From: a virus
Taxonomy: Duplodnaviria > Heunggongvirae > Uroviricota > Caudoviricetes
Direction: 5' to 3' (one strand)
DNA: 64,000 bases
Virus record (IMG/VR): IMGVR_UViG_2648501839_000008
The notes below the pieces were generated by a model that was not told the DNA's origin, made no database searches, and saw nothing but the letters and a program-made list of their open reading frames with translations. This document shows, piece after piece, positions 1-51,012 of this stretch (positions within the stretch are counted from its first letter, which is position 1; the number at the start of each line of letters is the position of its first letter). The position numbers were made by a program, and so were the translations under genes.

Positions 1-128
1 GAAAGAGTTGCGGCTGGCGATTGCCAGCCGCCTTTCTCGTTCCATCCTGGAACTGTGTCTTACCGACACATTGTCATCCTGACGCCGATAAGATACATGA
101 TTTAAAATGATAGGTAAACACTTACTTA

Positions 129-719
129 CTATTTGTTATAAACAAAACCAATATCTTTCTTGTGAGGCATATCTGCTGCTGAAAAAGCTGCGATCTTCGC
201 GAGTCGATCACATATTTCATTTTCACGATGCCCGGCGTGACCTTTAACCCACTTCCAGCGAACATTATGTCGACTTGCGGCCTCATCCAGACGCTTCCAC
301 AGATCAACATTCTTTACCGGTTTTTTGTCAGAAGTCATCCATCCATTGCGTTTCCACCATTTCATCCACTGTGTCATGCCGTTTTTCAGATACTGGCTAT
401 CAGAGTGCAAAATAACGTTGCATGGATATTTCAAACGCTCCAGCCCGATAAGTGCCCCCATCATCTCCATGCGGTTATTGGTGGTGCTATGAAAACCATC
501 TGAGAACTCGCGTTCCTCACCACGATACTGGAGAACGATACCGTAACCGCCCTGGCCACCCGGATTTTTAAGGCAAGAGCCATCACTAAAGATTTTCACG
601 GTTTTAAGCTGGGGATTGAACTCTACGACAGGCGTTGTGGGATTGGTGCGGGGAGAATTTTTGTTTTTGTCTTTTTTGCGAGTTTTTGCTTGCGATCGGG
701 CTGGTGTCTTCGTCGTCAT
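129..719 (-). CDS. rnhA: Ribonuclease H (RNase HI-like)
   Basis: Translation aligns by eye along RNase HI ([20 protein letters not shown]...[17 protein letters not shown]). Start placed at internal ATG 719-717 (MTTKT) because AGGAG lies 6 nt upstream; the ORF-track start at 803 adds 28 unsupported residues. Confidence 0.85.
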
Positions 720-1300
720 ATAAACTCCTGAATCAAGCGCCGCGCCGATTTTTCCTCGCGCGTGCGCACACGCGTGCGTGTTAATAATTATTAAAATAAA
801 CAAATTACTTCCCAGAACAGGTTTTTATAAACCTGAACTGAACGAACGAAGTGAGTGAAGTTCACCTCGAACGAAGTGAGAGGTTGTCTTTTCAGGTAAT
901 ACTCTCCCAGGGAGGTGAGTATAAAATTCCTCACCAACCTGGTCGTTTCATAACCTGAAAAGCTATGGTCTAAGTCTACTGCCAGCTTAGACTTGGGAAG
1001 TTATGGATGACAGCACCCCAGAACCGAGATCTTCCCACACTTTATGAAGGGGAGTACTGGATTCAACCTCTCGAAACACCCCAGACTCGACAATCATAAA
1101 GTGACCCTTGTCTCTGCTCACTTTGGTTCCCCCTTCCCCGACACCTATACGGCACCGGTTCTACGCTGGTAGTGAGCTTTTTTAAACCTGACGCCAGTGA
1201 CGCTTACCCCCACCCATCAGGTCGAGCCTCCAGTCTACGACTGGAAACTATCAGATCTTAGCACTTACAATTCACTTTATGAACAGTTTGTACTTATCTA

Positions 1301-1531
1301 TCATTGTGATTGATTATTTTCTCGACCATGTAGTTGAACATTCAAGGCAAACACCTCATTGATCAACTCACCTAAAAGCTGTTCAACAAGTTCGCGATGC
1401 TCGCCAAGATGCAAGCACTTAATTGCCCACTCGTACAAGTTGAAAGCCTGCTCACGATCTTTCATCATTTCACGAGCCTGGGCCAGAAAATCGCTCTCTA
1501 CGAGCGCAACGACATTAGTCGGGTATGACAT
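1301..1531 (-). CDS. Hypothetical small protein
   Basis: ORF 1301..1555; preferred start ATG 1531-1529 is preceded by CCACTTTAAGGAAACCAAC, a variant of the conserved initiation box seen at other genes here. Confidence 0.45.
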   Translation of the reverse strand: MSYPTNVVALVESDFLAQAREMMKDREQAFNLYEWAIKCLHLGEHRELVEQLLGELINEVFALNVQLHGRENNQSQ

Positions 1532-1637
1532 GTTGGTTTCCTTAAAGTGGTTCATAAAATCGATTTTAAAGCGTCTGGGAAGGGGGTCTAGTGGATTCTG
1601 TAGTGATGTTCAGGTCTGGGAGTCTCTGATACAAAAC

Positions 1638-1696
1638 AGCCTGCTTCCGTATATTAATAATTAATATGTAGTTATTTATATATACAGAAGCAGGCT
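1638..1696. terminator. Long hairpin (17-bp arms around an AT-rich loop) downstream of the dam-like gene; near-identical copy at 48172-48230
   Basis: Inverted repeat AGCCTGCTTCCGTATAT ... ATATACAGAAGCAGGCT read directly from sequence. Confidence 0.5.
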
Positions 1697-1717
1697 AATT
1701 ACAGACGCCAGAGCAAA

Positions 1718-2311
1718 CTAAGCAGCCTTCTTTGATGGTCTTTTTTTCCTGATCACATTCGCAGGATCATACCCTCCCAGACTTTTCATGACGTCCAAAG
1801 GGATCTTGCTTATAGAGTGCCCAGCGTCCTGACAAAACCCTCGAAAAACAACGAGCATACTGCCACCGGGGTTGATGTTTACTTCTACCTGACCCAAATT
1901 GACGTCAGGCTCGACAAACGCAACGCGGCCACCAGACAGAATAATCGTCTCATTCGCATACTCTGTTGCACGCTCATACCACTTTGTATCGAGGGATTGA
2001 GGAATTAGCATCACTGTTGTAACTCCGCGAGCCTGCTCACGTATAGCCGCATCAATCCAGGGGGAGATTTTGGAGTAGGGTGGATTGAGGAAGGCAATTG
2101 TACCTGGCTGCCCCCATTCAGATTTCAAAGCATCGCGCTCAACGCCTATGAAAATAGGCAGCTTTGCATTGTCCTTGTTGCAGGCAACGTCAACATCAAA
2201 TGTCACTCCAAGATAACGTTGAATGGCAGAAAACAGCCAATCAGGTGTTCTCCAGAGGTCACGAAGAGAGTTGTCGCGCTTTCGCTGTTTGATTTTTTCG
2301 GCTGCAATCAT
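1718..2311 (-). CDS. dam: DNA N6-adenine methyltransferase (phage Dam-like)
   Basis: WRTPDWLF and NPPYS motifs typical of phage N6-adenine MTases; no restriction endonuclease partner in the window. Confidence 0.8.
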   Translation of the reverse strand: MIAAEKIKQRKRDNSLRDLWRTPDWLFSAIQRYLGVTFDVDVACNKDNAKLPIFIGVERDALKSEWGQPGTIAFLNPPYSKISPWIDAAIREQARGVTTVMLIPQSLDTKWYERATEYANETIILSGGRVAFVEPDVNLGQVEVNINPGGSMLVVFRGFCQDAGHSISKIPLDVMKSLGGYDPANVIRKKRPSKKAA

Positions 2312-2493
2312 CTTCTTTCTCGATAGGTAAGTGATTACCTATTTTTGCATTTGATTTTATGTATGGCAATCAAATAAAACGCGCCAGAAATGCGAACAAG
2401 AAGCTCTCTGGCGCGTTTTTGTGGTGCTGGGTATGGGTTAGCTTACCCAGCACTATAAAGCTCTCTATGGGCTTTATTTTCAGTAGGGGAACG

Positions 2494-3303
2494 TCATCCA
2501 ATAGTGTACTCCGCGACAAACTTCTTAACGATCGGTGATTCTTCGTTCAATGTTAGATTTCCACCGTCTCTAACAGCAATTCCTGTAGCTGGAAATACAG
2601 CCATCATTTGCCCAGCCTGAGTTGACGCAGTGTTAAGCGGATACGGTTTTTCTGGATTGCTCATTAAAGCAATCTTAATACTATTACTTGTAGCCTTCTT
2701 TTCTGTGAGAAGGTGTCTCATGGAAATTACCGTGTAAACACTAATATCTGGACCTCCGCTAAACCAATTAAGAAGGTTTAATATCTTATCCTTTGCTTTG
2801 ACAGGCGCGTTTTCGTAAGCGTCTAAGAAAATATCTTTTTCTAAGCCTGCTTTATTGAAAAACAAATCATCTTTATCACTTAAAGTAAAACGAGGACCTC
2901 TTGCAGTACGAGCTTTTTTATTTGTATTGCTATCATTTGACTGTTGAACTTTTAATTCATCATTAACCTCAACACACTCTTCAACCTCAATAAACCCCAA
3001 TTGTTCTGGCTCGTTTTCGGCAGATTCAACACTTTCAGCCTTAATTACGTTTATAGGCTCATGAGCTAACTCCAACTCATTTAAAGCGGAGCTGAAATCA
3101 CCTGCTTTTTCTTCATTGAACAGTTCTTCGGCAACATCATCAGAACTCATGGCTACGCCAGCATCGAGGCCGAGAAGCAGATCGTCAATATCATCAGTAT
3201 TTTCAACCTGTGCAGCTTTTTTTACTGGTTCATCAAGTGATTGCAACATGGCTGTCAGCTCATCCAGATCATCATTTGTCATTACATTTTCAACCGAACT
3301 CAT
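2494..3303 (-). CDS. Hypothetical protein with highly acidic N-terminal half
   Basis: 269-aa ORF; residues 1-120 are strongly D/E-rich. No recognisable catalytic motif. Confidence 0.6.
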   Translation of the reverse strand: MSSVENVMTNDDLDELTAMLQSLDEPVKKAAQVENTDDIDDLLLGLDAGVAMSSDDVAEELFNEEKAGDFSSALNELELAHEPINVIKAESVESAENEPEQLGFIEVEECVEVNDELKVQQSNDSNTNKKARTARGPRFTLSDKDDLFFNKAGLEKDIFLDAYENAPVKAKDKILNLLNWFSGGPDISVYTVISMRHLLTEKKATSNSIKIALMSNPEKPYPLNTASTQAGQMMAVFPATGIAVRDGGNLTLNEESPIVKKFVAEYTIG

Positions 3304-3463
3304 GTAAGTCTCCTTCTGTTTAGTTGCATTTGCGTTTCGATGGCTACATTTTGACTAAACCTATCAGGCGGAAAAGTATTAAATACAGGCAGGAAATGAT
3401 TGAAAGGCGACTGTTCTTTAAAAGAAAGCCTGCTTCAAACTCTCTTTAAAGCAGGCTTTTGTT

Positions 3464-4021
3464 TTACACAATTTCAGAGGGTAATTTAAAAAATCCGTAT
3501 TTATTACGTGCCTTAAAGAAGCATTGCATCATTAAGTTTGTGTCATATAAGGCACTATGTGCTTTGGCATGATCGTATATAAAGCCAAGAGAGAAGGCCA
3601 ATTCTTCAAGGCGAGGACGTTTACCGTCTTCTGTGGCCCACAATCCCGATAACATAGTATCTATAACGGGAACGTCTGGCAGTCTTACTCCATACCCTGA
3701 AAACTCGTGTCGAATAAATGGTATATCAAACGCTTCGCCGTTATGAGCAATCCACGCACTACATGCCCCCATATAAGCGCCAATTTCGCTGGCATGATTT
3801 GACAACAAAGGTTCAGCTGCGAGCTGTTCTAATGAAATGCCATGAACGGCTTGAGCTTTCGGATCTATGTTTCTGCGAGGGTTAAAACGCATCTCCAGAC
3901 TATCAATATGTCTCTGTGTCTCCAGTTCATAGCGGGTAATTGCGATTTCAATAATTTTATGACCAGCAAGGAAATCCAGTCCCGTAGACTCGATATCGAT
4001 GCCTGCAACAATCGTTGTCAT
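3464..4021 (-). CDS. DEDDh-family 3'-5' exonuclease (DnaQ-like)
   Basis: Exo I GIDIESTG, Exo II HNGEAFDIPF and Exo III HSALYDT motifs in the correct order. Confidence 0.8.
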   Translation of the reverse strand: MTTIVAGIDIESTGLDFLAGHKIIEIAITRYELETQRHIDSLEMRFNPRRNIDPKAQAVHGISLEQLAAEPLLSNHASEIGAYMGACSAWIAHNGEAFDIPFIRHEFSGYGVRLPDVPVIDTMLSGLWATEDGKRPRLEELAFSLGFIYDHAKAHSALYDTNLMMQCFFKARNKYGFFKLPSEIV

Positions 4022-4030
4022 CAGAACTCC

Positions 4031-4450
4031 TTACAACTTCTTAGCGCCCTTAAGTAGTGCGCTACGTACAAATTGAGCCGCTTTTTTCAAAGTTTCTTCA
4101 CTGGTTTCACAGACAATCGGATCTTTCCACTTACCTGACGCAGTGTTGAGAATATTGATTTGGTTGCTATCCAGACAAACAGAGATATAAAGCACCGTGC
4201 CACCAGCCAGCATCAAATGCATAGGAAACAGAGGCTTTTTACTGTCTTCACTGAACTGAGACATGGCGATGTTAATGGCTTCACCTACTTGTGCGCCAAC
4301 AAGCCCCTGCGCAGTTTCGAATATGGCACGAATAGCCAGGCGAGCCTCTCGATCGCTCATAAGCGACCGGGAATGTTCGTCCGCTACACGAATCAAAGCC
4401 TCTGTTGTTTTCCGATCCAGTTCATCTTCAAGCAACATTTCACTAAACAT
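4031..4450 (-). CDS. Hypothetical protein
   Basis: 139-aa ORF in operon context; no motif recognised. Confidence 0.5.
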   Translation of the reverse strand: MFSEMLLEDELDRKTTEALIRVADEHSRSLMSDREARLAIRAIFETAQGLVGAQVGEAINIAMSQFSEDSKKPLFPMHLMLAGGTVLYISVCLDSNQINILNTASGKWKDPIVCETSEETLKKAAQFVRSALLKGAKKL

Positions 4451-4511
4451 TTTTTATCCTTAACCCATTTTGAGAGTTTTATTGTCGCAATGTCGAAGAG
4501 GCGAACAATTT

Positions 4512-9513: not shown

Positions 9514-11829
9514 TCAGATTTTGCAGGCTCCGTCGCACTCATCTTCTGGCTCGACGGCTACAGCTTGCGTAAGTGGATTCTTCGGTTCGTCGTCATCACG
9601 CTTTCCTGCCCCATCTCTGGTGTTGTGGTAGTAAAGCGTTTTAACTCCCATCTTGTAGGCGAGAAGCAAATCTGACAGTAGCGTCATCATTGGGACTTTA
9701 TCGCCTTCAAAGCGAGAAGGGTCATAGTTGGTATTGGCTGAAATAGCCTGGTCAAAGAACTTCTGGATGATCGCCACCTTTGTCAGATAGCCGCGGTTGT
9801 CCGGCATATTCCACAGGTATTCATACTGCTCCTTCAGTTTTTCAAACTCAGGCACGACCATCTTAACGATGCCGTCCTTAGAAGATTTCACCGACACCGG
9901 TCCACGAGGCGGTTCGATGCCGTTGGTGGAATTAGTGATCTGGCTGGAAGTCTCGCATGGCATTTGTGCCGTCAGTGTGGAGTTGCGAAGGCCGTATTTT
10001 GCAATACGCTCACGCAGTTCTTCCCACGGCATCTTTAACTCAAAGTTGGTTTCGCCGCTTTCGTCTAATGAAGAACGGTAATGGTCGATCGGCAACTGAC
10101 CAATTGCGTATTTGGTCTGCTCAAACCAGTCACACTCACCTTTTGCTTCGGCAAGTCGGCAGCTGGCGTCAAGAAGGTAATACTGGACAGCTTCGAACGT
10201 TTCATGCACCAGTTTATTGCCAGCGGTATCAGAATAACGAACGCCATTCTTTGCCAGGTAATAAGCAAAGTTGGTTACACCGATTCCCAGGCTACGACGA
10301 GCTTTGGCTGGCACTTCGGCTGCCTCCATCGGATAGTCTTGATAATCCAGTAACGAATCCAGTGCAGCAACGGCATAGAATGCCACCTCTTTAAGAGACT
10401 CCAGTGAACGAATGGCTCCGAGGTTAAAAGCGGATAAAGTGCACAGCGCGATCTCACCGTTCGGGTCGTCGGTAAATGTCAGTGGACGAGTAGGTAAAGT
10501 GATCTCCATACACAGGTTTGACTGGCGGACAGGTGCAAGAGCAGGAATGAAAGCGCCATGCTCATTAATATGATCGACGTTCGCAATATAAATTCGGCCC
10601 GTGGACGCTCGTTCCTGCATCAGAGATGAGAACAGCTCAATGGCAGGTACTGACTTCTTGCGAATTGAATCATCGGCTTCGTATTTATGGTACAGCTTTT
10701 CAAACAGATCCTGGTCTGTGAAGAAGGCTTCGTACATATCAGGCACATCATGCGGGCTGAACAGAGTGATGTTCTCGCTTCTGACGAGTCGACGGTACAT
10801 CAGACGGTTACTCATGACGCCGTAATCAAGATGGCGAACGCGGTTTTCATCGATACCACGGTTATTTTTCACCACCAGCAGACTTTCAACTTCAAGATGC
10901 CAAATCGGGTAAAACGCTGTTGCTGCGCCACCACGGACACCACCTTGCGAGCAAGATTTAACAGCAGTCTGGAAATGCTTCAGGAATGGAATAACTCCGG
11001 TATGGGTGGCTTCACCATTGCGGATCTCGCTGCCAAGCGCACGGATACGGCCAAAACCAATACCAATTCCAGCACGACGTGAAACGTAGTCGATAATTGC
11101 GGCTGAAGCTGCACTAATACCTTTCAGACTATCGCCAGACTCAATCAGCACACAACTGGAGAACTGACGGGTTGGAGTACGGACGCCGGCCATGATTGGT
11201 GTGGGCAGAGACAGTTTGAACGTACTTGTAATGTCATAGAAACCTTTGACCATCTCCATACGTGTTTTGCCCGCGCAGTCGTCTTCCCAATTCTGGAACA
11301 GACACATGCCAACCAGCATATAGATATGTTGCGGACCTTCGTGAATCTCACCAGTAACACGGTTTTGTACGAGATATTTGCTTTGCAGCTGCACCGTAGC
11401 CGCATAGCCAAAAAGATCGTCACGTTTAGGCTTAATGTAATTGCCGAGTTCTTCGATCTCTTCAAACGAATAATGTGTCAGCAAATCCTTGTCATAAACG
11501 CCCTTGTTAACGTTCTTGACAATGTGTTGGTAGAAGTTCGGATAGTCGTAACGACCGAAGGCATCTTTGCGGATTTTAAAAATGTTCAGGCGGGCAGCCA
11601 CCTGTGAGTAATTTGGTGCTTCCGGTGAGATCAAATCAGCGGCAGATTTAACCAAAGCCTCATGCAACTGGCTGGTGGTCATCCCATCAAAAATGCTGGC
11701 CGCAGCTCCCATTGCTACAGCGGATGCGCTTACGCCACGAATGCCTTCTACGCCATACATTACGACGCGGTTGTATTTTTCTTCGGATAACGGCTCTGTT
11801 TGGCCGTTACGTTTTACGATGCTTATCAT
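9514..11829 (-). CDS. nrdA: Ribonucleotide reductase class Ia large subunit
   Basis: 771 aa, colinear with E. coli NrdA (YLVQNRVTGEI, PTPIM.GVRTPTRQFSSCVLIE, SNLC.EI, ends GACKI). No intein or intron interruption seen. Confidence 0.95.
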   Translation of the reverse strand: MISIVKRNGQTEPLSEEKYNRVVMYGVEGIRGVSASAVAMGAAASIFDGMTTSQLHEALVKSAADLISPEAPNYSQVAARLNIFKIRKDAFGRYDYPNFYQHIVKNVNKGVYDKDLLTHYSFEEIEELGNYIKPKRDDLFGYAATVQLQSKYLVQNRVTGEIHEGPQHIYMLVGMCLFQNWEDDCAGKTRMEMVKGFYDITSTFKLSLPTPIMAGVRTPTRQFSSCVLIESGDSLKGISAASAAIIDYVSRRAGIGIGFGRIRALGSEIRNGEATHTGVIPFLKHFQTAVKSCSQGGVRGGAATAFYPIWHLEVESLLVVKNNRGIDENRVRHLDYGVMSNRLMYRRLVRSENITLFSPHDVPDMYEAFFTDQDLFEKLYHKYEADDSIRKKSVPAIELFSSLMQERASTGRIYIANVDHINEHGAFIPALAPVRQSNLCMEITLPTRPLTFTDDPNGEIALCTLSAFNLGAIRSLESLKEVAFYAVAALDSLLDYQDYPMEAAEVPAKARRSLGIGVTNFAYYLAKNGVRYSDTAGNKLVHETFEAVQYYLLDASCRLAEAKGECDWFEQTKYAIGQLPIDHYRSSLDESGETNFELKMPWEELRERIAKYGLRNSTLTAQMPCETSSQITNSTNGIEPPRGPVSVKSSKDGIVKMVVPEFEKLKEQYEYLWNMPDNRGYLTKVAIIQKFFDQAISANTNYDPSRFEGDKVPMMTLLSDLLLAYKMGVKTLYYHNTRDGAGKRDDDEPKNPLTQAVAVEPEDECDGACKI

Positions 11830-11846
11830 GTATCACCAAATAAAGA

Positions 11847-11868
11847 GGGCCACTAAATATAGTGGCCC
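11847..11868. other. Perfect 8-bp-stem hairpin in the nrdA 5' leader
   Basis: GGGCCACT-AAATAT-AGTGGCCC palindrome between a palindromic box (11878-11895) and the nrdA start. Confidence 0.4.
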
Positions 11869-11902
11869 ATGTTAATAGATAAGCACTTACCTATCAATGA
11901 AA

Positions 11903-12472
11903 TCAAATGAGAGACTTAAGAACATCGCGCACCTGGCGGAACTGATCTGTTTGCATACCGGTATGGATGGCAGCCACCGCATCAGCCAAATGTTCGTTTT
12001 TGTTCACGAGAACATCCTGTCCAGATTGCTTACGACGCAGCCACGGTGCTTTAGGGTGTTTTTTCGTAGCCCACTGGATAATCTCTTCTTTCGATGTAGT
12101 AAGTTTATTGCCGACAAAATGCTTAATTTCGTTTGGAGTAACCTGGATCAATGGCTTATCCACACACGCAAGTACACCGATACAAATACCGTAAGACGTC
12201 TGCGAACGAGAGTTTTGGCTCCCAACCGGTAGCTCACAAAAAACCATATTTGCCTTATCAATGATTGGTTTCGCAACACGCCATATTTCACTGGCGCGGC
12301 GCAGATCGTCACTGTTCACACGAACGGTCTTTTTGTTACTCCCCGCTTTAGTCTCAACAAGAGTAAGGCCGTGAATCTCAAGTTCGTCCGTTTCAAGGTC
12401 TAAAGTGCCCACAGCAAGCCCAAAGTTGCTCATAGAGGGATCAACACCAACTACGCTGATTTTTTTACTCAT
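11903..12472 (-). CDS. Putative RuvC-like Holliday junction resolvase
   Basis: N-terminal VVGVDPSMSNFGLAV resembles the RuvC-fold first catalytic motif; 189 aa. Confidence 0.55.
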   Translation of the reverse strand: MSKKISVVGVDPSMSNFGLAVGTLDLETDELEIHGLTLVETKAGSNKKTVRVNSDDLRRASEIWRVAKPIIDKANMVFCELPVGSQNSRSQTSYGICIGVLACVDKPLIQVTPNEIKHFVGNKLTTSKEEIIQWATKKHPKAPWLRRKQSGQDVLVNKNEHLADAVAAIHTGMQTDQFRQVRDVLKSLI

Positions 12473-12481
12473 ATAGTCTCC

Positions 12482-13225
12482 TTACCATGTTCCCCATATA
12501 GGGTTTTCCAATAATCTCGCCTCCAACGAATTGGCTACTATTGCCGTTTGCAACGTTGGTTGGGGATAGTTTGCAAAGTCTGAATACTCATTTACCTGCG
12601 TGACACGTTTATCTACAGCATGTTTAACGCCACTTGCTATGAAATGACGCATGATGCCCAACAGCCTCCGACTGTCTGCACTATCGTTTGCTAAAACATG
12701 AGGGAGCTGAAGTTCGATTTCTACCATTTCTCCATACTTACCAACAAACTGTAGTTTGTCCGCACTGTACTTTTTATCCCTCCTTTGGATAAGGAAACCA
12801 GTAAAAGCATCACCTGGCGATGCCAAACTATCCACCCGCTTATTGGCAAGTCGAATAAGGTTCGTGAAAGCCATACAGAGATGCGCATCCATTGCCCCAA
12901 AGAACCCTTCGCTATTAATGTTAAGATCTTCAGTTTCATGGGATGCAATAAACCCAGGCCCGACGTTGGGAAGATATCCCCCCTCAACAAAAGGATTAAT
13001 CAGGATCGGCGCAATACATCCAGGTGGTAGTGATTTCAAACTTTGCATCAATGGTGTCTCGGATATTAGACCAAGCAACGGGGCGAATTGTGCTTTGTCA
13101 ATATTATTGCTGCCCCACAGAATACGTGGAGCCGCACCATTGGAAGTATGCCCATTGATCAGTTTTATCGACTGCATCACCGCAAACACCTGCAAAAACT
13201 GCGAGCGGCTTAATTTAAACGACAT
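12482..13225 (-). CDS. Hypothetical protein
   Basis: 247-aa ORF between the SbcC-like and RuvC-like genes. Confidence 0.6.
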   Translation of the reverse strand: MSFKLSRSQFLQVFAVMQSIKLINGHTSNGAAPRILWGSNNIDKAQFAPLLGLISETPLMQSLKSLPPGCIAPILINPFVEGGYLPNVGPGFIASHETEDLNINSEGFFGAMDAHLCMAFTNLIRLANKRVDSLASPGDAFTGFLIQRRDKKYSADKLQFVGKYGEMVEIELQLPHVLANDSADSRRLLGIMRHFIASGVKHAVDKRVTQVNEYSDFANYPQPTLQTAIVANSLEARLLENPIWGTW

Positions 13226-35004: not shown

Positions 35005-35391
35005 ATGTCTGACAACAAGATTGAATTTATAGAAAGTCGCTACGCTGCTTTTATCGCAGGGTTGATTGAATCCTCACCTATGAGCCAGGCCCAGATAGCC
35101 AAAACAATTGGGTATAAAAACGCCAACAACCTTTCTTTAATTAAAAGCGGCAAAATTCCTTTGCCTATCGATAAGGTTCGTCCGCTGGCGCTGGCACTGG
35201 GTATTGAGCCAAGTCGTCTTATGATGATGGTGCTGGAAGAACGCCAACCCGAACTCGCAGCATTTTTATACAAAGAAGGCACTGCTCCTCTTAACGAGGA
35301 CGAAAAACAGGTTCTTGCTGCATATAACGAGCGATTCGGTAAAGAGAAAGGCGCATCACAAAAGGTTGTTGAGGCCATAAAGTCTCTATGA
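35005..35391 (+). CDS. HTH XRE-family DNA-binding protein
   Basis: SQAQIAKTIGYKNANNLSLIKSGK helix-turn-helix; convergent with and slightly overlapping the tyrosine recombinase gene. Confidence 0.7.
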   Translation: MSDNKIEFIESRYAAFIAGLIESSPMSQAQIAKTIGYKNANNLSLIKSGKIPLPIDKVRPLALALGIEPSRLMMMVLEERQPELAAFLYKEGTAPLNEDEKQVLAAYNERFGKEKGASQKVVEAIKSL

Positions 35392-36489
35392 AAAATTTAC
35401 ACGAATAAGCTCTGTCGATAGACGATCTCCCTTGAATTTGTGGTCAATTTCGTCTAAATCCGGTTGCTCTACGATTGATGCGATGTACGTCGAGAAACTT
35501 TCTAAGGCGTCTCGCATCTCGTCCATATAATCGTGCCGGTCGTAGACCCGATCTATCCCCTCAAGACTGTGGTTCATGATTTTACGTGATACCTCCTGGC
35601 TTATGCCTAATGCTGGGAAGTAACTACGCGCAGTACGACGCAAATCTCGTGGTGTAAATGGCTCAAGCTCCATCAGTTCTGGTCGTTCCAGGATACGGCG
35701 TAATGCCTGGGCTATTGCCACTTTAGACATCGGAAGATCTTTCCCGATTTTTTTATTCGAAGGCACAAGCCACTGGCTGCCTTTACCATATTCGAATAAC
35801 TCTTCAATGCATGTGCGCATTAATGTGCTTAAAGGCAGAGAATGCTCACGGGCTGATTTGTTTCTCTTGCCTTGATTCCAAACCCCACGCTGGAGGTTGA
35901 ACTCACTTTTTTTAGCCCGCAGTACTTCGTCAGGTCGTCTTGCGGATACAAGACATAGCCTGGCCGCCCATTTTGTACCAGCACACACATTGAAGTAGTC
36001 CCATATATTCCAGAACACCCATACCTCTGCGTCGGTTAGCTTCCGCTCGCGAGGTGTGGGCTTTGCGCCACCGGCAACTTTGTTAAGTGACATATCGTTT
36101 AACGGTGACACGTCGATCATCCCCTGGAAGGCGCACCAGCTGAGGAACTGCTTCATCAGAGAGAAAACGCGGCGACCCATAACAATTTTGCCATCCAGTA
36201 TTAGTGGGTTGACCAGTTGGTTCACCATGAACCTATTAATATCACTTACTTTTACATCGGCAATGTGCGGCAAAACATGTATCAAAATACAATGAACAGC
36301 GATCTCTGGCCGACGTCTTGTTATCAGCAGAGATAAGCGAGTGAATAACATGAATGCGTCCGAGAATCTCATGTCATTGCTGACCTGGGAGATCATAACG
36401 GCCTGCATTTGAGATGCTCTTTCGAGATACTCAATCGCCTCTTTTGAGGTGTTCTCCGCAGCGCGTGCTCTGTCAAAGCTATTTTTCAT
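35386..36489 (-). CDS. Tyrosine recombinase / integrase-family protein
   Basis: C-terminal RRTARSY ... MNHSLEGIDRVYDRHDY contains the R..H..R..Y catalytic pattern. Confidence 0.8.
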   Translation of the reverse strand: MKNSFDRARAAENTSKEAIEYLERASQMQAVMISQVSNDMRFSDAFMLFTRLSLLITRRRPEIAVHCILIHVLPHIADVKVSDINRFMVNQLVNPLILDGKIVMGRRVFSLMKQFLSWCAFQGMIDVSPLNDMSLNKVAGGAKPTPRERKLTDAEVWVFWNIWDYFNVCAGTKWAARLCLVSARRPDEVLRAKKSEFNLQRGVWNQGKRNKSAREHSLPLSTLMRTCIEELFEYGKGSQWLVPSNKKIGKDLPMSKVAIAQALRRILERPELMELEPFTPRDLRRTARSYFPALGISQEVSRKIMNHSLEGIDRVYDRHDYMDEMRDALESFSTYIASIVEQPDLDEIDHKFKGDRLSTELIRVNFS

Positions 36490-36699
36490 ATGACAATCAC
36501 CGAGTTACGCCGATGCACTGTATAAGTAAACAGTATATTAGGCATAGATTCTTATAGGATCAAGAGTAAAAGTAACTCATTTTCAGTAATGATTCCATAC
36601 ATAGTAGGTATGGAATCATTTAGACGTTGTTTTTTGAATTTTAAGGGAAACAGGAGTGAGTTTGGTGGGAATAAAAACGGCTCCTGTGAGCCGTTTAAA

Positions 36700-36945
36700 T
36701 CAGAGGGTGCTGACGTATGCAGCCAGTTCTGTGTATCCGCCAATCGGTTGGCCATCGATCAGTACCTGGGGGATAGTCTCTACCGGTTTACCAACAATTT
36801 CACTAAGTTTTTCCTTGTCGATACCGGCAGTGGTGATGTCGATGTACTCATAATCACCGTAGCCATGTCCCTTTAGTTGCTTCGCCAGCTCGACCGCACG
36901 TTTGCAGTATGAGCAGTTATCTCGTCCGTAGATAGTGATCGTCAT
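36700..36945 (-). CDS. Glutaredoxin-like protein
   Basis: MTITIYGRDNCSYCK with CxxC active site; start set at ATG 36945 (GAGGT RBS) rather than track start 37023. Confidence 0.8.
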   Translation of the reverse strand: MTITIYGRDNCSYCKRAVELAKQLKGHGYGDYEYIDITTAGIDKEKLSEIVGKPVETIPQVLIDGQPIGGYTELAAYVSTL

Positions 36946-37119
36946 TGTTACCTCATAGAATTGATATGCAACTTTACTTACAAAGAAGATAGGTATGTGC
37001 ATACTTATCATTGCAGTCTGCATTATAAAGCTATTAAAGCCTCGATCAATCTATTAATTAAGGCATTGTTTGGTTAACATTACCCTAATATTTTATAGTT
37101 AGTAGAGTGAAATACATAC

Positions 37120-38382
37120 ATGCCTTTTTTAATTTTCATTATTATACTACTGCTCACCGTGATTTTTTGGGATTGGGTTGTTTTAAATGGTCAAATTGTT
37201 GGAACATTGGCTACAGCATTTGCTTTTATAGCAACAGCATGGAATGCCTACGAAGCGAGAAAAAGTGCAAAAGCAGCTTTTTCAGCCCTTCAATTAACAA
37301 CAGAATCATTGTTCGAAATGCGAAAGAGTGCATTTAAACAATGGTTTGATTCCTTATTAAATCAACATGATGAGCTATGTCTTCTTGCAAAACAAATTAT
37401 CGATAAACGCAAAGTTAATTTAAACAGCGATGAGTTACATAGACTATATTACCCATTGGTAAAACAGCATGAGGTAATACAGTATGTGAAGCATATTATT
37501 AATATTTTTGAGTATGTGGATAGTTCATTTTATATTGATGGGGAATGTCTAAAGGAAAAAAGAGCGTATGTGTCACAATTAATTTTCAAAATCCCACCTC
37601 AGATGAAGTTGATCATTGCTATCTTTGGATTAAAAATCGATTATTGTGAACATATTAATTCGGGAAAACTGTGTTGTTTATTGAATAAATATGATTTTTT
37701 CAATGATGAAATATTTTTTGATGATGCTTATTCAGATATGCCTTATCTGGATGCATTCATAAACCTTAGATTCAACAAAATATTCAAATCTCGAATGATA
37801 AATTATTTTGATAATATCATTAAAAGTTATTATGTTCCATCGGACGTTAAAAGGGACTGGATGTTTCGAAACCCAAAGCTCGTGCCGTCGGTTCTTATGA
37901 ATTATAAAACTCCTTGTTCTCCTATAATTAATGATTACTTTGAGAAGTTGCCTTTACATGTAAGAAACTACTTTGAGGAACTACTTAAAACCGCGAATGA
38001 TAGAGTTACTCATTTTGACGTTTACATCCCACGCCTTATTGGTTGTTCAATCGTGCAACATTACGAAGATGTGCCTTCCGAAAAAAACAGGTTAAATGAC
38101 AGGAATGATGTAATAGCTATGGCTGAAGATTACATCGAGAAAAGAAAATATAATCAACTGGATTACATACTTGAAGATATATACTTCAAGAGTGACGAAG
38201 ATATAATCCCTGGCCACCATTTGATTGTGGCATTTGATGACTATGAATTTAAATTATCACTCATTAAGATAAATGAGAATAAAGATAGCGATAATCTTTT
38301 AAATCGAATTTATACTGAATCCAGTAGCATGGTTAAAGAATATAAGCGCGAAATATTAAAACTGGGCGACTATGTAAAGTAA
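37120..38382 (+). CDS. Membrane-anchored hypothetical protein, candidate abortive-infection-type accessory gene
   Basis: 420 aa, very AT-rich, two N-terminal TM helices then an alpha-helical soluble region; plus-strand in a minus-strand backbone. Confidence 0.6.
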   Translation: MPFLIFIIILLLTVIFWDWVVLNGQIVGTLATAFAFIATAWNAYEARKSAKAAFSALQLTTESLFEMRKSAFKQWFDSLLNQHDELCLLAKQIIDKRKVNLNSDELHRLYYPLVKQHEVIQYVKHIINIFEYVDSSFYIDGECLKEKRAYVSQLIFKIPPQMKLIIAIFGLKIDYCEHINSGKLCCLLNKYDFFNDEIFFDDAYSDMPYLDAFINLRFNKIFKSRMINYFDNIIKSYYVPSDVKRDWMFRNPKLVPSVLMNYKTPCSPIINDYFEKLPLHVRNYFEELLKTANDRVTHFDVYIPRLIGCSIVQHYEDVPSEKNRLNDRNDVIAMAEDYIEKRKYNQLDYILEDIYFKSDEDIIPGHHLIVAFDDYEFKLSLIKINENKDSDNLLNRIYTESSSMVKEYKREILKLGDYVK

Positions 38383-38400
38383 ATTGCACTGTTCAACAAA

Positions 38401-38420
38401 AAAGGGGCCGAAGCCCCTTT
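38401..38420 (+). terminator. Rho-independent terminator of gene 37120..38382
   Basis: AAAGGGGCCGAAGCCCCTTT followed by a T-rich tract. Confidence 0.65.
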
Positions 38421-38574
38421 GAATTTTGCGCTGAAAAAAGTGTTGCTAGGATGTTAGCAAGCTATGGTTAAGAACGTCTGCCGTAATTATCTATCACAGC
38501 GTTGAGCGGTCTGGTTTATGTTAGCGGAGTCTTAATCGAGTTGATTAAAAGGCCAAACCGCTCAACGCTGTGTC

Positions 38575-38660
38575 TGGCGGAGAGTAATGGAATCGAACCA
38601 TCATCGTTTGCACAATGGGACGGTTTTCAAGACCGCTTGAGCACCATGCTCCCTACTCTC
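38575..38660 (-). tRNA. tRNA-Ser (anticodon UGA), type II with long variable arm
   Basis: Reverse complement folds by eye: acceptor GGAGAGT/ACTCTCC, anticodon loop CUUGAAA, T-loop GGTTCGATTCC, 3' GCCA. Confidence 0.6.
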
Positions 38661-38981
38661 CAGCTATTGTGATGGTCGGTGCTGAACTCCGACACAGGGT
38701 TGTAGCAAGCCCCGCAAAGCGCGCACTACTGTAGTTGCGGCACATCAGCCTGTGCATTCATCACAATGGTAAGATCACTACCTTTCGACCAGTCATTGTG
38801 CACATGAACGACGATTAACCGTAATGATATTATCGTTGTGTTGTGAAGCCAGATGCTTATCTTCTGGTTGCTTCAAAGAGCTGCACTTCCTCACAACGGT
38901 AAGAGCACTGGTCTGACTCTATCGATTTACGGCCTTGTGGGTCAGTATCGCCGATTCGCCCAATGCTCTTACCTGTTGTGT

Positions 38982-39057
38982 TGGTGCCGGTTAACGGACT
39001 TGAACCGCTGGCCATTCGCTTACAAAACGACTGCTCTACCAACTGAGCTAAACCGGC
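38982..39057 (-). tRNA. tRNA-Thr (anticodon UGU), tentative
   Basis: Reverse complement GCCGGTTTAGCTCAGTTGGTAGAGC...GGTTCAAGTCC...AACCGGCACCA; anticodon loop UUUGUAA, with one mismatch in the anticodon stem. Confidence 0.55.
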
Positions 39058-39061
39058 AATT

Positions 39062-39148
39062 TGGTGGGGAGTGATGGAGTCGAACCACCCGAGTCGCCAT
39101 GACAGTAGATTTACAGTCTACACCGCTACCTCTACGGACTAACTCCCC
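39062..39148 (-). tRNA. tRNA-Tyr (anticodon GUA), type II
   Basis: Reverse complement GGGGAGT...GTAGACTGTAAATCTAC...GGTTCGACTCC...ACTCCCCACCA. Confidence 0.6.
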
Positions 39149-39153
39149 TAAAT

Positions 39154-39228
39154 TGGCGATGGTGGGTGGATTCGAACCACCGACCAGTTGGTTAACAGCC
39201 AACTGCTCTACCGCTGAGCTACACCATC
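39154..39228 (-). tRNA. tRNA-Asn (anticodon GUU)
   Basis: Reverse complement GATGGTGTAGCTCAGCGGTAGAGC..GTTGGCTGTTAACCAAC..GGTTCGAATCC..CACCATCGCCA. Confidence 0.65.
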
Positions 39229-48238: not shown

Positions 48239-49942
48239 TTAATTATTAAGCAATCTGCTCACACGTAGTTTGTTAAGACTTGATCTAGAGGCCAGTTTCG
48301 TTAATGCACCTATTGCTTTATTCGTGATTTTTTGCTGTTCTTCTGTTAGTTCTTGCATACTTTTGAATCTGAGCAACCCCTTTCTCACTAAATCCAAAGC
48401 ATCCTGATTGCGGGATAGTATCCACTTTAAATAATCATCTTCAGAGAAACTGTTAAGATATGCTATGTCACTATGATTAAATTTGCCTTCAATTATTTTG
48501 TATAAAACATTCTCTAAATTAGTCTCTTCAGGCTTCTTATCCATCAATTTTTTTTGAATTAGCAGACCTAACTTTTCGTTACCAAATATCTCTACATACA
48601 AATTCCGAAAAGCAGTATAAGCATCATCTTGGCTAACAAAGGCATCTGCATATGCCTCTATATAACTATCACAATCAATCTCCAATCTATTTAAGATATC
48701 AATCAAGCCTATGAAGTGAGCAACAGGTATGTGTGAAAGATTGTCGTTAATTACACATTTTATCTTAGAAATAAACTCAGATTCATTGTCCTTGAATGAG
48801 TCACTAAAAATATCCCAAACATTGTTAACATCACATAAAGCCTTGTGTTCTTTATATTGTTTATTTTTTTCTTCTATTATACCTCGAATATTGCTTTCAG
48901 TAGAAAGATAACCATTCTTGAGATAAAAATCTATGTCATCATCGAAAGCAATTTCCGCTCGTTCATAAATAACATCAAGACTATTAATAAATGAATATAC
49001 AGAATCATCCTTTTTATCATCTAACATGTAATCAAATACATGTATGTTTTTAATTGATTCTTTAAACAAGGCATAATCAACACCTGGAACACCAGAATAG
49101 TAAACCACTGAAAACAGAACCAATCTATTGATAAAACTTTCTCTAACCTTATCCTCTGCCAAGCTTAGCTCATTCCTAAGATTAACCAGAGATGTTTTTA
49201 TTTTATTTAATATACGGATATTTTTAATGCCTAAGTCATTTGCTAAGACTTTTAACAAAAGAAAATCAGAATCAGTTTCATAAAAAACTTTACGTAAGTT
49301 CTTCTCAGGCGTAGGATCGTATTTTATTTCGACATCAATTACTTTTTCTCTGTACTCTAAAAACTGTTTTTTTGCAGTTTCATCATGTAAATTATCTTCA
49401 TTTAAAATTAGAACAACTTTGCAACCTTTTCTTCTTGCTAATTCATCAATTACCCCCATAATTTCTTTAACTTCTAGCGAATTACCTTTTCTTTCAACAT
49501 CATCAATACAAACCAAATAATTATTAACAAATTTATACTCAAGAGATGACAGCAGGTTATCTGTTTTGAACCCAAAAAAATCGTTCTTTCCGAAATGTAT
49601 TAAAAATTTTGACAAGGAGTTGTATTTCAACCATCCCCAAAACCCATTTCTATAACGAATCATAGTTCGATCCGTTTCAGATAAAATTAGTTCTTTATAT
49701 TTCTTTTCATTAATTGGTGTGGCACAATGATAAAGAGCTTTTTTAATATCACCAATAGAGTTAACCCCAAACAAAGAAACATACGAATATGCATTAAAAT
49801 CTAATCCTTCAGAATGCTTAGTATAAAAACTATTCCAATAATGAGTTTTACCAACGCCCCAATCTCCTTTTATGACGGCAACCCGATGATCTGAAACTAG
49901 AAAATTTTTTAGAAATGATTCTATCGATTCCATTAGTATCAA
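48239..49942 (-). CDS. KAP-family P-loop NTPase
   Basis: N-terminal Walker A in VAVIKGDWGVGKTHYW, Walker B VCIDD; 567 aa with markedly lower GC than flanking genes. Confidence 0.75.
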   Translation of the reverse strand: MILMESIESFLKNFLVSDHRVAVIKGDWGVGKTHYWNSFYTKHSEGLDFNAYSYVSLFGVNSIGDIKKALYHCATPINEKKYKELILSETDRTMIRYRNGFWGWLKYNSLSKFLIHFGKNDFFGFKTDNLLSSLEYKFVNNYLVCIDDVERKGNSLEVKEIMGVIDELARRKGCKVVLILNEDNLHDETAKKQFLEYREKVIDVEIKYDPTPEKNLRKVFYETDSDFLLLKVLANDLGIKNIRILNKIKTSLVNLRNELSLAEDKVRESFINRLVLFSVVYYSGVPGVDYALFKESIKNIHVFDYMLDDKKDDSVYSFINSLDVIYERAEIAFDDDIDFYLKNGYLSTESNIRGIIEEKNKQYKEHKALCDVNNVWDIFSDSFKDNESEFISKIKCVINDNLSHIPVAHFIGLIDILNRLEIDCDSYIEAYADAFVSQDDAYTAFRNLYVEIFGNEKLGLLIQKKLMDKKPEETNLENVLYKIIEGKFNHSDIAYLNSFSEDDYLKWILSRNQDALDLVRKGLLRFKSMQELTEEQQKITNKAIGALTKLASRSSLNKLRVSRLLNN

Positions 49943-49956
49943 TCCTTTAATTCATA

Positions 49957-49982
49957 TATTGGGCGTAACAAACGCCCAATAT
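49957..49982. terminator. Hairpin between the par operon and the KAP NTPase gene
   Basis: ATATTGGGCG-TAACAAA-CGCCCAATAT inverted repeat. Confidence 0.5.
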
Positions 49983-49984
49983 AA

Positions 49985-50344
49985 TCAACCTTTCTTCATC
50001 AACTCTCGTTTAATTTCATCGGTACGCATCGTAACGTCGGCAGCTGTGATCGCCTCGTTAAGCTTCACGATGTCCTCGATTTCCTGCGGTGACTTCTCTG
50101 CCAGATGGAAAATGGCTGCTCGAATCACGTCAGAACGAGTGAACTTCTCGAAGCGAGGGATGAACTTCATCATCTCCAGCAGTTCGAAGTATTCGTCTTC
50201 CAGTGACATTGTGCGGCTTTTAATTTTCTCTTTGCCACGAGTCGGGCGTCCCTGTGGTCTGACTGGTTGGCGCAAAGGAGTTGTGTTCTTAGCCGGTGCA
50301 TCAGGCTCTTTGCGCTTTGCTAGGTCACCCATTTTCATGGACAT
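49985..50344 (-). CDS. Putative centromere-binding partition protein (ParG-like ribbon-helix-helix)
   Basis: 119-aa basic protein translationally coupled to ParA; C-terminal region RSDVIRAAIFHL is compatible with an RHH fold. Confidence 0.5.
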   Translation of the reverse strand: MSMKMGDLAKRKEPDAPAKNTTPLRQPVRPQGRPTRGKEKIKSRTMSLEDEYFELLEMMKFIPRFEKFTRSDVIRAAIFHLAEKSPQEIEDIVKLNEAITAADVTMRTDEIKRELMKKG

Positions 50345-51012
50345 TATTCTTCTTCCTCCAGACTCAACAGATAATCTACAAATTCTTCAAACTCGGCTTC
50401 AGCCTTTTTGTCGCGCTCGCTACCGGTCATTTCGAAGATAGAACGACCAGACTCTTCCGCATCATCGTAGACGTTGCGGTTATATAGATTGACTGGCGCA
50501 GACTCGATGCCAAACGTCTCGACAATCTCTTTAGCCGCCAGAATGCGAGACACTTGTGATGGCAAAGCCGGGCACTGGTTCATGACCGCGCGGACCTTCA
50601 CTTTATCGTTTACATTACGAACATTGTCGATAATAGGATCGATGTCACGCAGAGATTTCAAATCACGACGCTTAGGACGAAGCGGGATAATGATAACGTC
50701 GGCCATCAGCATCGCTTGTCGCTGAATTTCGGAGTCAAAGCCACCAGCATCTACCACTACAAACTCAGCTCTACCCTGAAGCGATTTTAGGTGCTTAATG
50801 ATGTCATCCTGGACGTATGCAAAAGGAATCAGCTCAAGGTCTTCGTTCTGTCGACGGTCTTCACACCAGCTCGTTGTCGTGCGCTGAATATCTATATCGG
50901 TAATATAAACCTTCTTCTTCTTTTTGACTTTCAGGCAAACGGCAATTTGCTGGGCAACGGTGGATTTGCCAGGCCCGCCCTTTGTGCCGCCAACCACAAA
51001 GATCTTGGTCAT
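50344..51012 (-). CDS. parA: ParA/ParF-type partition ATPase
   Basis: Deviant Walker A GGTKGGPGKST at the N-terminus; 222 aa (small ParA class). Confidence 0.9.
   Translation of the reverse strand: MTKIFVVGGTKGGPGKSTVAQQIAVCLKVKKKKKVYITDIDIQRTTTSWCEDRRQNEDLELIPFAYVQDDIIKHLKSLQGRAEFVVVDAGGFDSEIQRQAMLMADVIIIPLRPKRRDLKSLRDIDPIIDNVRNVNDKVKVRAVMNQCPALPSQVSRILAAKEIVETFGIESAPVNLYNRNVYDDAEESGRSIFEMTGSERDKKAEAEFEEFVDYLLSLEEEE

Follow-up and report, generated by a model that had tools for sequence, protein, structure and literature searches.

What is a lone, very AT-rich gene doing between the glutaredoxin gene and the tRNA cluster of a phage-plasmid, transcribed against its neighbours? The question is raised by the IMG/VR virus record IMGVR_UViG_2648501839_000008, a stretch of 64,000 nucleotides referred to here in its full length as the window. 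The initial annotation had pointed to positions 37024-38420 as a very AT-rich plus-strand gene for a 420-aa protein. Strand, composition and length agree with the list of open reading frames (ORFs) and with a GC content of 0.321. The range does contain the ORF, but the coding sequence itself, stop codon included, spans 37120..38382 (+), and the rest consists of an AT-rich upstream region (37024-37119) and a downstream hairpin. The reading favoured here, with modest confidence and on the basis of sequence comparison, is that the gene is accessory cargo (a "moron") and that its product is probably an anti-phage determinant of the single-protein AbiC/AbiP (putAbiC, PF16872) kind.

The ORF is a real gene that is kept by purifying selection. 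At its base composition, a stop codon is expected about every 12 codons, and the probability that 420 codons stay open by chance is 4e-16. Across 500 shuffles of the surrounding cassette, the longest open frame reached 142 codons versus the 420 of the ORF. Of the 40 complete E. coli genomes with the ORF, 39 have it intact, and alleles from five different plasmids all retain 420 uninterrupted codons. The pairwise ratio of non-synonymous to synonymous substitution rates (dN/dS) among alleles is 0.23-0.32, which places the gene under purifying selection. A search for positive selection along the alleles found dN/dS below 1 in every segment, with a peak of 0.4-0.7 at residues 201-295. The GC content of the ORF (0.297 at third codon positions) lies well below the window mean of 0.452 and the 0.44-0.50 of the neighbouring genes (z = -3.5), and the window contains only two low-GC islands besides the ORF region.

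Judged by its backbone, the window is an SSU5/pHCM2-like phage-plasmid of E. coli. The Escherichia phages Cyrano and CMS-2020a match about 60 % of a 5-kb neighbourhood query at 92-98 %, and for plasmid pG749_2 the match is 99.7 % over the gene region 37024-38420 and about 96 % over a 7-kb neighbourhood. Backbone neighbours include a DNA polymerase III alpha-like gene (read from its translation), CobS/CobT-like genes and a DNA ligase gene.

Within this backbone, the gene forms a variable single-gene cassette of 1439 bp (36958..38396, GC 0.318), which stands in place of a gp49-family gene of the sister elements. The borders were set by blastn of the window: homology to Cyrano, SP15_P2, pCP53-113k, p15ODDR and pLH09-a-C ends at 36947-36957, just past the ribosome-binding site of grxA, and resumes at 38397-38400. 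The left backbone border of the slot is grxA itself, which encodes the glutaredoxin (36700..36945, -; PF00462, E 7e-11; named GrxA in sister records), and the right one is tRNA-Ser(TGA), the first gene of the tRNA cluster (38575..38661, -; ARAGORN and Rfam). The cassette contains the one ORF only, oriented opposite to the genes around it.

What fills this slot differs from element to element. Cyrano, pCP53-113k and p15ODDR carry only the gp49-family gene (116 aa, PF13876), co-directional with grxA, and SP15_P2 and p20170902CC-1 carry alleles of the 420-aa gene that are 30 % and 55 % identical, respectively. In pLH09-a-C (NZ_CP100547, locus 10482-12541), the ligase of which is 100 % identical to that of the window, the slot holds an AbiGi-family gene (PF10899, E 4e-25), the gene for a 403-aa partner and a 47-aa ORF. 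Alleles of 33-40 % identity occupy the syntenic place in Klebsiella, Enterobacter and Salmonella elements, beside gp49/phoH or a Tn3 insertion, and the slot is empty in some other Klebsiella elements. By these comparisons, the cargo at this locus genuinely varies, and a sister element uses the slot for an AbiGi-type module. The 403-aa partner of AbiGi matches no Pfam family above threshold and is not recognisably AbiGii. In the Salmonella plasmid pZ1322HSL0038-2 (locus 1-4500), a Tn3-family transposase, a resolvase and a CPBP protease fragment lie directly beside the AbiC-like gene and replace the grxA/integrase side; this agrees with a preprint that describes Tn3-borne bla_TEM near the tRNA loci of SSU5 elements (bioRxiv 10.1101/2025.09.12.675607).

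The allele of the window occurs in 40 of 5426 complete E. coli genomes, in every case on a plasmid of 106-120 kb and never on the chromosome. The backbone ligase is found in 241 of the same genomes, so about 17 % of the E. coli elements carry the allele. The gene is likewise far from universally conserved in related elements at large: PLSDB holds 138 records with any homolog versus 759 with the ligase. It is absent from about 80 % of sister elements and is therefore not required for their life cycle. Protein identity between genera is 84-91 % for the ligase and 30-40 % for the 420-aa protein. No record of the INPHARED phage collection matches the gene by DNA or by tblastn. A moron, in the sense of Hendrix and Juhala, is a gene added among those of the backbone; it is missing from close relatives, deviates in composition and forms its own transcription unit. 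The present gene displays the absence from relatives, the deviant GC content and an opposite orientation; its terminator is shared with the backbone, and a convincing plus-strand promoter is lacking.

The proximity of a recombinase and of tRNA genes had initially been taken as the mark of an insertion hotspot. The tyrosine integrase gene (35386-36489, -; ORF list and Pfam), a helix-turn-helix (HTH) regulator gene (35005-35391, +; ORF list) and four tRNA genes (Ser-TGA, Thr-TGT, Tyr-GTA and Asn-GTT; 38575-39228, -; ARAGORN) are indeed present as described. However, the tRNAs are the element's own and not a chromosomal attachment (att) site, the integrase belongs to the backbone, and grxA lies between the integrase and the gene. 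The integrase-bearing stretch is 97-98 % identical at the nucleotide level in elements with and without the cassette, and no att-like direct repeats of more than 10 nt were found to flank the cassette. A genomic island bounded by att repeats at a tRNA gene and bringing its own integrase was rejected on these grounds. In the simplest reading, the exchange of cassettes looks like homologous recombination in the conserved flanks.

The relationship to abortive-infection proteins emerges through the relatives of the 420-aa protein. The protein is annotated as a "hypothetical protein" in all records examined, and among the PHROGs it falls only in phrog_18168, the function of which is not known. A profile search of 1.84 billion cluster representatives gave only 66 matches. 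Among 48 full-length homologs, 37 match the putAbiC family PF16872 (E <= 0.01, best 1.4e-11); seven match the PADLOC model for AbiC (best 1.3e-6) and four that for AbiP (E 1e-4), weakly and always over the same core of ~60-100 residues. A 31 % identical allele (P0007) reaches 18 bits on PF16872 (E 0.004), the gathering threshold of which is 22 bits. BLASTP links the window protein at E 2e-18 to the Pantoea agglomerans plasmid protein WP_161569778.1, which bears the PGAP name "putative phage abortive infection protein" and scores 45.4 bits on PF16872. Their alignment includes the Pantoea segment ATAWSAREARRSAKVA. The true N-terminus of the Pantoea homolog also encodes a transmembrane (TM) hairpin, and relatives in general have one or two N-terminal TM segments.

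As a reference for AbiC, the p275A protein was used (NZ_CP016699, 69553-70569; found via the plasmidome paper PMC6458302), which matches the full PADLOC AbiC model at E 4e-133 and the homologs of which all carry PF16872. An hhalign comparison of the 48-sequence family alignment (A2) with the p275A AbiC sequence gave a probability of 85.9 % (E 5e-6, 59 columns), and comparison with a 16-sequence AbiC alignment gave 59 % (E 9e-5, 61 columns); residues 117-177 of the window protein pair with residues 190-250 of AbiC. These results point, by remote homology, to a divergent relative of the PF16872 putAbiC proteins and, through them, of lactococcal AbiC and AbiP. They back the early impression of a membrane-bound abortive-infection or exclusion protein, but not the suggestion of a possible new family; the family is not brand-new. 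A tblastn search from a distant member (P0033) did not reach Lactococcus, and a profile search of genome contigs with the window's own subfamily (A1) produced no confirmed relative. The HEPN RNases of the Abi_C (PF14355)/AbiJ-SadR type were considered and rejected: the protein has no Pfam match and nowhere contains an R.x(3-6)H motif. This family, with its HEPN R-phi-x(3-5)-H motif, has a similar name but is a different family (PMC13590631).

The surroundings of two distant homologs speak for defence. One, a PF16872 protein (P0044), is encoded between gpA and the portal gene of a P2-like prophage, a locus known as a defence hotspot of P2 (Rousset et al. 2022, PMC9122126). Another (P0034) lies in a toxin-rich island among RelA_SpoT, HEPN_RES/RES, SMEK_N and integrase genes. 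Given these contexts and the AbiGi alternative in the same slot, an anti-phage role may be regarded as the best-supported function. A further distant member (P0042) matches the PADLOC model PD-T4-4_B over profile positions 34-205 of 206 (E 3.6e-4), a hint that a validated E. coli system may hold a related domain.

The protein begins with a predicted TM hairpin (codons 1-42; 37120..37245, +) that appears both in the Kyte-Doolittle profile and in an AlphaFold2 (AF2) model with helices at residues 2-22 and 24-97. TM1 (residues 2-22) is strongly hydrophobic (Kyte-Doolittle 2.8), and TM2 (residues ~24-41), rich in small residues, is only moderately so (1.73). The loop joining them is very short, with ~3 residues predicted to face the periplasm. 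The basic residues R47/K48/K51 follow immediately after TM2 and therefore place the remaining ~380 residues in the cytoplasm, which would thus hold about 90 % of the protein. The AF2 model used was built from the 48-sequence alignment (pLDDT 91.3, pTM 0.80); an earlier one from six sequences was poor (pLDDT 64). In the model, TM2 is part of a helix that runs on as a long stalk to residue 97, followed by a helical core (residues 106-290) and a small alpha/beta part near the C-terminus; the soluble part is otherwise nearly all helical. The two N-terminal TM helices and the alpha-helical cytoplasmic region foreseen by the initial annotation are thereby recovered, the second helix being less hydrophobic and a small alpha/beta element coming in addition. 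A sequence search of solved structures with the window protein gave no match.

Conservation is distributed very unevenly along this architecture. The most conserved element of the family is the juxtamembrane motif ATAWNAYEARKSAKAA (codons 38-53; 37231..37278, +), defined by the invariant alignment columns of subfamily A1: 16 consecutive residues are invariant even among alleles that are 31 % identical overall. The counterpart in the Pantoea homolog is the segment ATAWSAREARRSAKVA mentioned above, and the consensus of the 48 sequences at this site reads ATAWAAxEARxSAxAA. The putAbiC-like helical core follows at codons ~115-198 (37462..37713, +), located by the mapping of PF16872 to equivalent residues in the Pantoea homolog and P0007, by hhalign and by the conservation profile. 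Only three columns are invariant in all 48 homologs (Y122, F193 and F194), and these lie within the core. The C-terminal half (codons 201-420; 37720..38379, +) is hypervariable by column information, identity and the extent of tblastn alignments. Its columns carry ~0.9-1.0 bits versus 2.1-2.6 bits in the core; identity to relatives is 5-25 % in residues 200-420, which makes this part nearly unalignable, versus ~50 % in residues 1-100 (closer set); and many tblastn alignments end at residue ~311. No polar residue is invariant across the family, in line with the initial remark that a recognisable catalytic motif is missing. Enzymatic activity is therefore disfavoured, and no enzymatic step is proposed below. 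The combination of a conserved membrane-proximal module and a hypervariable distal half is proposed to be the pattern expected for an effector joined to a specificity or sensor domain.

AbiC (Prf) of L. lactis plasmid pTN20 offers the nearest template for such a protein. It is likewise encoded by a single gene on a mobile element, has two N-terminal TM helices (residues 1-29 and 44-73 in the p275A protein) and an all-helical soluble domain, and appears to share the putAbiC core of ~60-80 residues. In contrast, it has 338-344 aa instead of 420 and no counterpart of the invariant ATAWNAYEARKSAKAA. The core of the window protein lies ~70 residues nearer to the membrane and is followed by ~220 extra, hypervariable C-terminal residues; its host is Gram-negative and its carrier is a phage-plasmid. 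AbiP, also from L. lactis and placed in the AbiC/P group by a 2026 review, is likewise a single protein held in the membrane, and its soluble core is related. It is far smaller (model length 223) and carries a single TM helix; binding of nucleic acids and triggering by a tail protein have been established for AbiP only. For both, the membrane anchor is followed by a soluble domain that is helical and without an identifiable fold relative (PMC13064643).

The gammaproteobacterial PF16872 proteins (e.g. WP_161569778.1, P0033, P0034 and P0044) resemble the window protein in size (405-470 aa), in the TM hairpin, in the ATAW..EAR.SA motif and in their carriage on plasmids, prophages or toxin-rich islands, with profile E values of 1e-10 to 1e-25. 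Unlike the window protein, they pass the Pfam threshold; they are 17-24 % identical to it, and their C-terminal halves show no sequence relationship. At the level of the locus, the AbiGi module of pLH09-a-C uses the identical slot between grxA and the tRNA terminator for cargo of the Abi type, but it consists of two genes for unrelated proteins and has no TM anchor. The old/tin locus of P2, the gpA-portal hotspot named above, is likewise a fixed slot of a temperate phage in which alternative anti-phage genes are swapped through recombination of conserved flanks, and P0044 occupies the slot of P2; there, the phage family and the flanking genes are different.

If the gene serves defence, the 420-aa protein would be made in the lysogen and would reside in the inner membrane, with its helical domain of ~380 residues in the cytoplasm. 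By analogy with AbiP and AbiC, the variable C-terminal half may recognise a product of the infecting phage: AbiP is triggered by a major tail protein, and AbiC lowers the production of major capsid protein and leaves DNA replication unaffected (PMC13064643). The conserved N-terminal module would then execute the block, and the infection would abort before progeny release, protecting the phage-plasmid and clonal hosts. Speculatively, oligomerisation via TM2 and ATAWNAYEARKSAKAA might disturb the membrane or its energy state, a step that has to be regarded as doubtful. It is conceivable, though unlikely, that the SSU5-type clade represents a distinct one-protein immune sensor-effector, in which the C-terminal domain recognises a phage structural protein and the orphan-fold core signals to the ATAWNAYEARKSAKAA segment, which would form a membrane-disrupting oligomer.

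Several observations weigh against assigning the gene to AbiC/AbiP-type defence. Searches of Pfam, NCBIfam and PADLOC with the window protein gave no direct match; it fails to match PF16872 even at E <= 1 and any PADLOC model, those of AbiC and AbiP included, at E <= 10. The link to AbiC covers only ~60 residues at moderate probability, and the A1 profile of the window's own subfamily does not detect AbiC by hhalign. The window protein does not keep the invariant polar residues of the lactococcal AbiC alignment, such as H200/R201 and R228 in the p275A protein, and the function may have drifted. A structural neighbour of the confident AF2 model was sought and none was found, leaving an orphan fold that supports no mechanism. 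To our knowledge, the mechanism of AbiC and AbiP themselves has not been known since the early 1990s. The promoter scan revealed no convincing plus-strand promoter for the gene. In a screen, a lactococcal AbiC-like gene of 38 % identity conferred no protection (PMC11381338). For AbiP, the reported activity is nucleic-acid binding and not membrane damage (PMC13064643).

The missing match to any defence model, the lack of a catalytic motif and the orphan fold would also suit a gene outside defence, for instance an addiction or toxin-like maintenance factor or another accessory membrane function (lysis timing, host physiology), for which the putAbiC similarity would reflect a shared helical scaffold. 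YafO-type toxin modules reside in the neighbouring slot of Klebsiella and Enterobacter elements, and this gene is not among the systems listed by a DefenseFinder-based survey of 1,377 SSU5-type elements (bioRxiv 10.1101/2025.09.12.675607). However, the cassette holds a single gene without a partner ORF and has no repeat array for an RNA antitoxin; repeats of a ToxIN-like antitoxin were looked for in it and none were found. The absence of the gene from most sister elements, the AbiGi module that swaps in at the same borders and the distant homologs in established defence hotspots likewise make a non-defence function improbable. Superinfection exclusion, in which an inner-membrane prophage product blocks the entry of incoming phage DNA as SieA, Imm and HK97 gp15 do, is quite improbable. 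It would accord with a membrane-anchored protein of a temperate element and with a moron-like, AT-rich gene that is transcribed opposite to its neighbours from a slot showing presence/absence variation. Yet the ~3-residue loop alone faces the periplasm of a protein that is otherwise predicted to be almost wholly cytoplasmic, and its sole recognisable relatives, which are of the Abi type, act once the DNA has entered (replication is unaffected by AbiC, and AbiP acts on replication and transcription; PMC13064643).

Within defence, the TM hairpin could be a mere anchor for an AbiP-type cytoplasmic domain that, released by a phage protein, binds RNA or single-stranded DNA (ssDNA) non-specifically at the membrane and thereby derails replication or the early-to-late transcription switch. 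AbiP, a membrane-anchored protein of the same group as AbiC, prefers RNA over ssDNA, requires both its TM segment and its binding domain and responds to a major tail protein (PMC13064643), and the four family members that match PADLOC AbiP are joined by the Pantoea homolog, all over the shared core. Such a mode of action is nevertheless unlikely for the window protein: the AbiP matches are weak, the soluble part is net acidic (52 K+R vs 57 D+E) and not suggestive of a general nucleic-acid binder, and the TM2/juxtamembrane segment is the most conserved of the family, which would be unexpected of a passive anchor.

A GC-rich hairpin at 38401..38420, with an 8-bp stem and a folding z of about -2.5, had been described as a clean rho-independent terminator of the gene's own. 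The hairpin exists, but the canonical T-tract TTTTTTGTTG belongs to the minus strand, which also bears the tRNA genes, and follows downstream of them; the plus-strand tract reads TTTGAATTTT, and the terminator scan lists the site for the minus strand only. It is conserved in elements without the 420-aa gene, and homology to these resumes just before it, which assigns the hairpin to the backbone. From scan, folding and conservation, it is most likely the terminator of the tRNA operon, acting bidirectionally and also stopping the convergent 420-aa gene. Between the hairpin and tRNA-Ser lies a 20-nt inverted repeat (95 % complementary, 38-nt spacer; 38495-38514 / 38553-38572). The stretch 38495-38572 is conserved in Cyrano and matches no Rfam family at threshold.

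Five promoter-like sites were found in the region, fewer than the mean of 9.1 in shuffled sequences. A weak plus-strand candidate for the gene, TTGGTT-18-TATAGT (37070..37099, +), matches 8 of 12 consensus positions; it was picked by eye below the scan threshold and may be regarded as tentative. The best sigma-70-like match of the region, TTGATC-16-TATAAT (37022..37049, -; 10/12, consensus match only), lies within the cassette and points toward grxA. The cassette that displaced gp49 may thus also supply a promoter for grxA.

The flanks of the slot vary as well. The tRNA cluster of Cyrano has three genes and lacks Tyr. The gap between the Ser and Thr tRNA genes of the window is 320 bp long (38662-38981) and includes a section (38844-38961) in which even pG749_2, the closest plasmid, differs. 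On the other side, the interval between the integrase gene and grxA (36490-36699) is a separate variable site. The window leaves it empty; Cyrano and p15ODDR fill it with an ORF of 184 aa, pLH09-a-C with one of 307 aa, and Klebsiella and Enterobacter elements with a YafO-toxin pair.

Further candidate cargo is located elsewhere in the window. The low-GC island at 48001-50100 has the lowest GC content of all (0.285). It encodes a KAP-family P-loop nucleoside triphosphatase of 567 aa (48239-49942, -; PF07693, E 1.5e-5; P-loop GDWGVGKT), with a ParA-like partition gene (50344-51012) as neighbour. The triphosphatase gene, too, has the look of accessory cargo, possibly for defence. At 43639-44676 (+), opposite to its neighbours, a gene encodes a secreted-looking protein of 345 aa with five Sel1 repeats (PF08238, E 1e-37). 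pLH09-a-C has a tetratricopeptide repeat (TPR) protein at the same place, and pCP53-113k and p15ODDR have none; with the primase on one side and the ligase-side genes on the other, the site seems to be one more variable slot.

What emerges is a divergent variant of the already known AbiC/P (putAbiC) kind that current models miss, encoded at a grxA/tRNA site of SSU5-like elements that seems, as far as the literature was searched, to be an undescribed defence slot. Clinical E. coli, Shigella, Salmonella and Klebsiella commonly carry SSU5/pHCM2-like phage-plasmids, in which defence screens currently report few systems. Recognition of the slot would allow better annotation of the elements with a homolog, roughly one fifth of the total, and it points to further candidate defence genes there. 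It is also of practical relevance for predicting host range in phage therapy against strains with such elements. The gene offers a model, tractable in E. coli, for the function of AbiC/AbiP-type proteins. Should the sensor-effector reading prove true, it would provide a first mechanism for the 30-year-old AbiC/AbiP group, together with a new defence hotspot between grxA and the tRNA terminator in the phage-plasmids of clinical Enterobacteriaceae.

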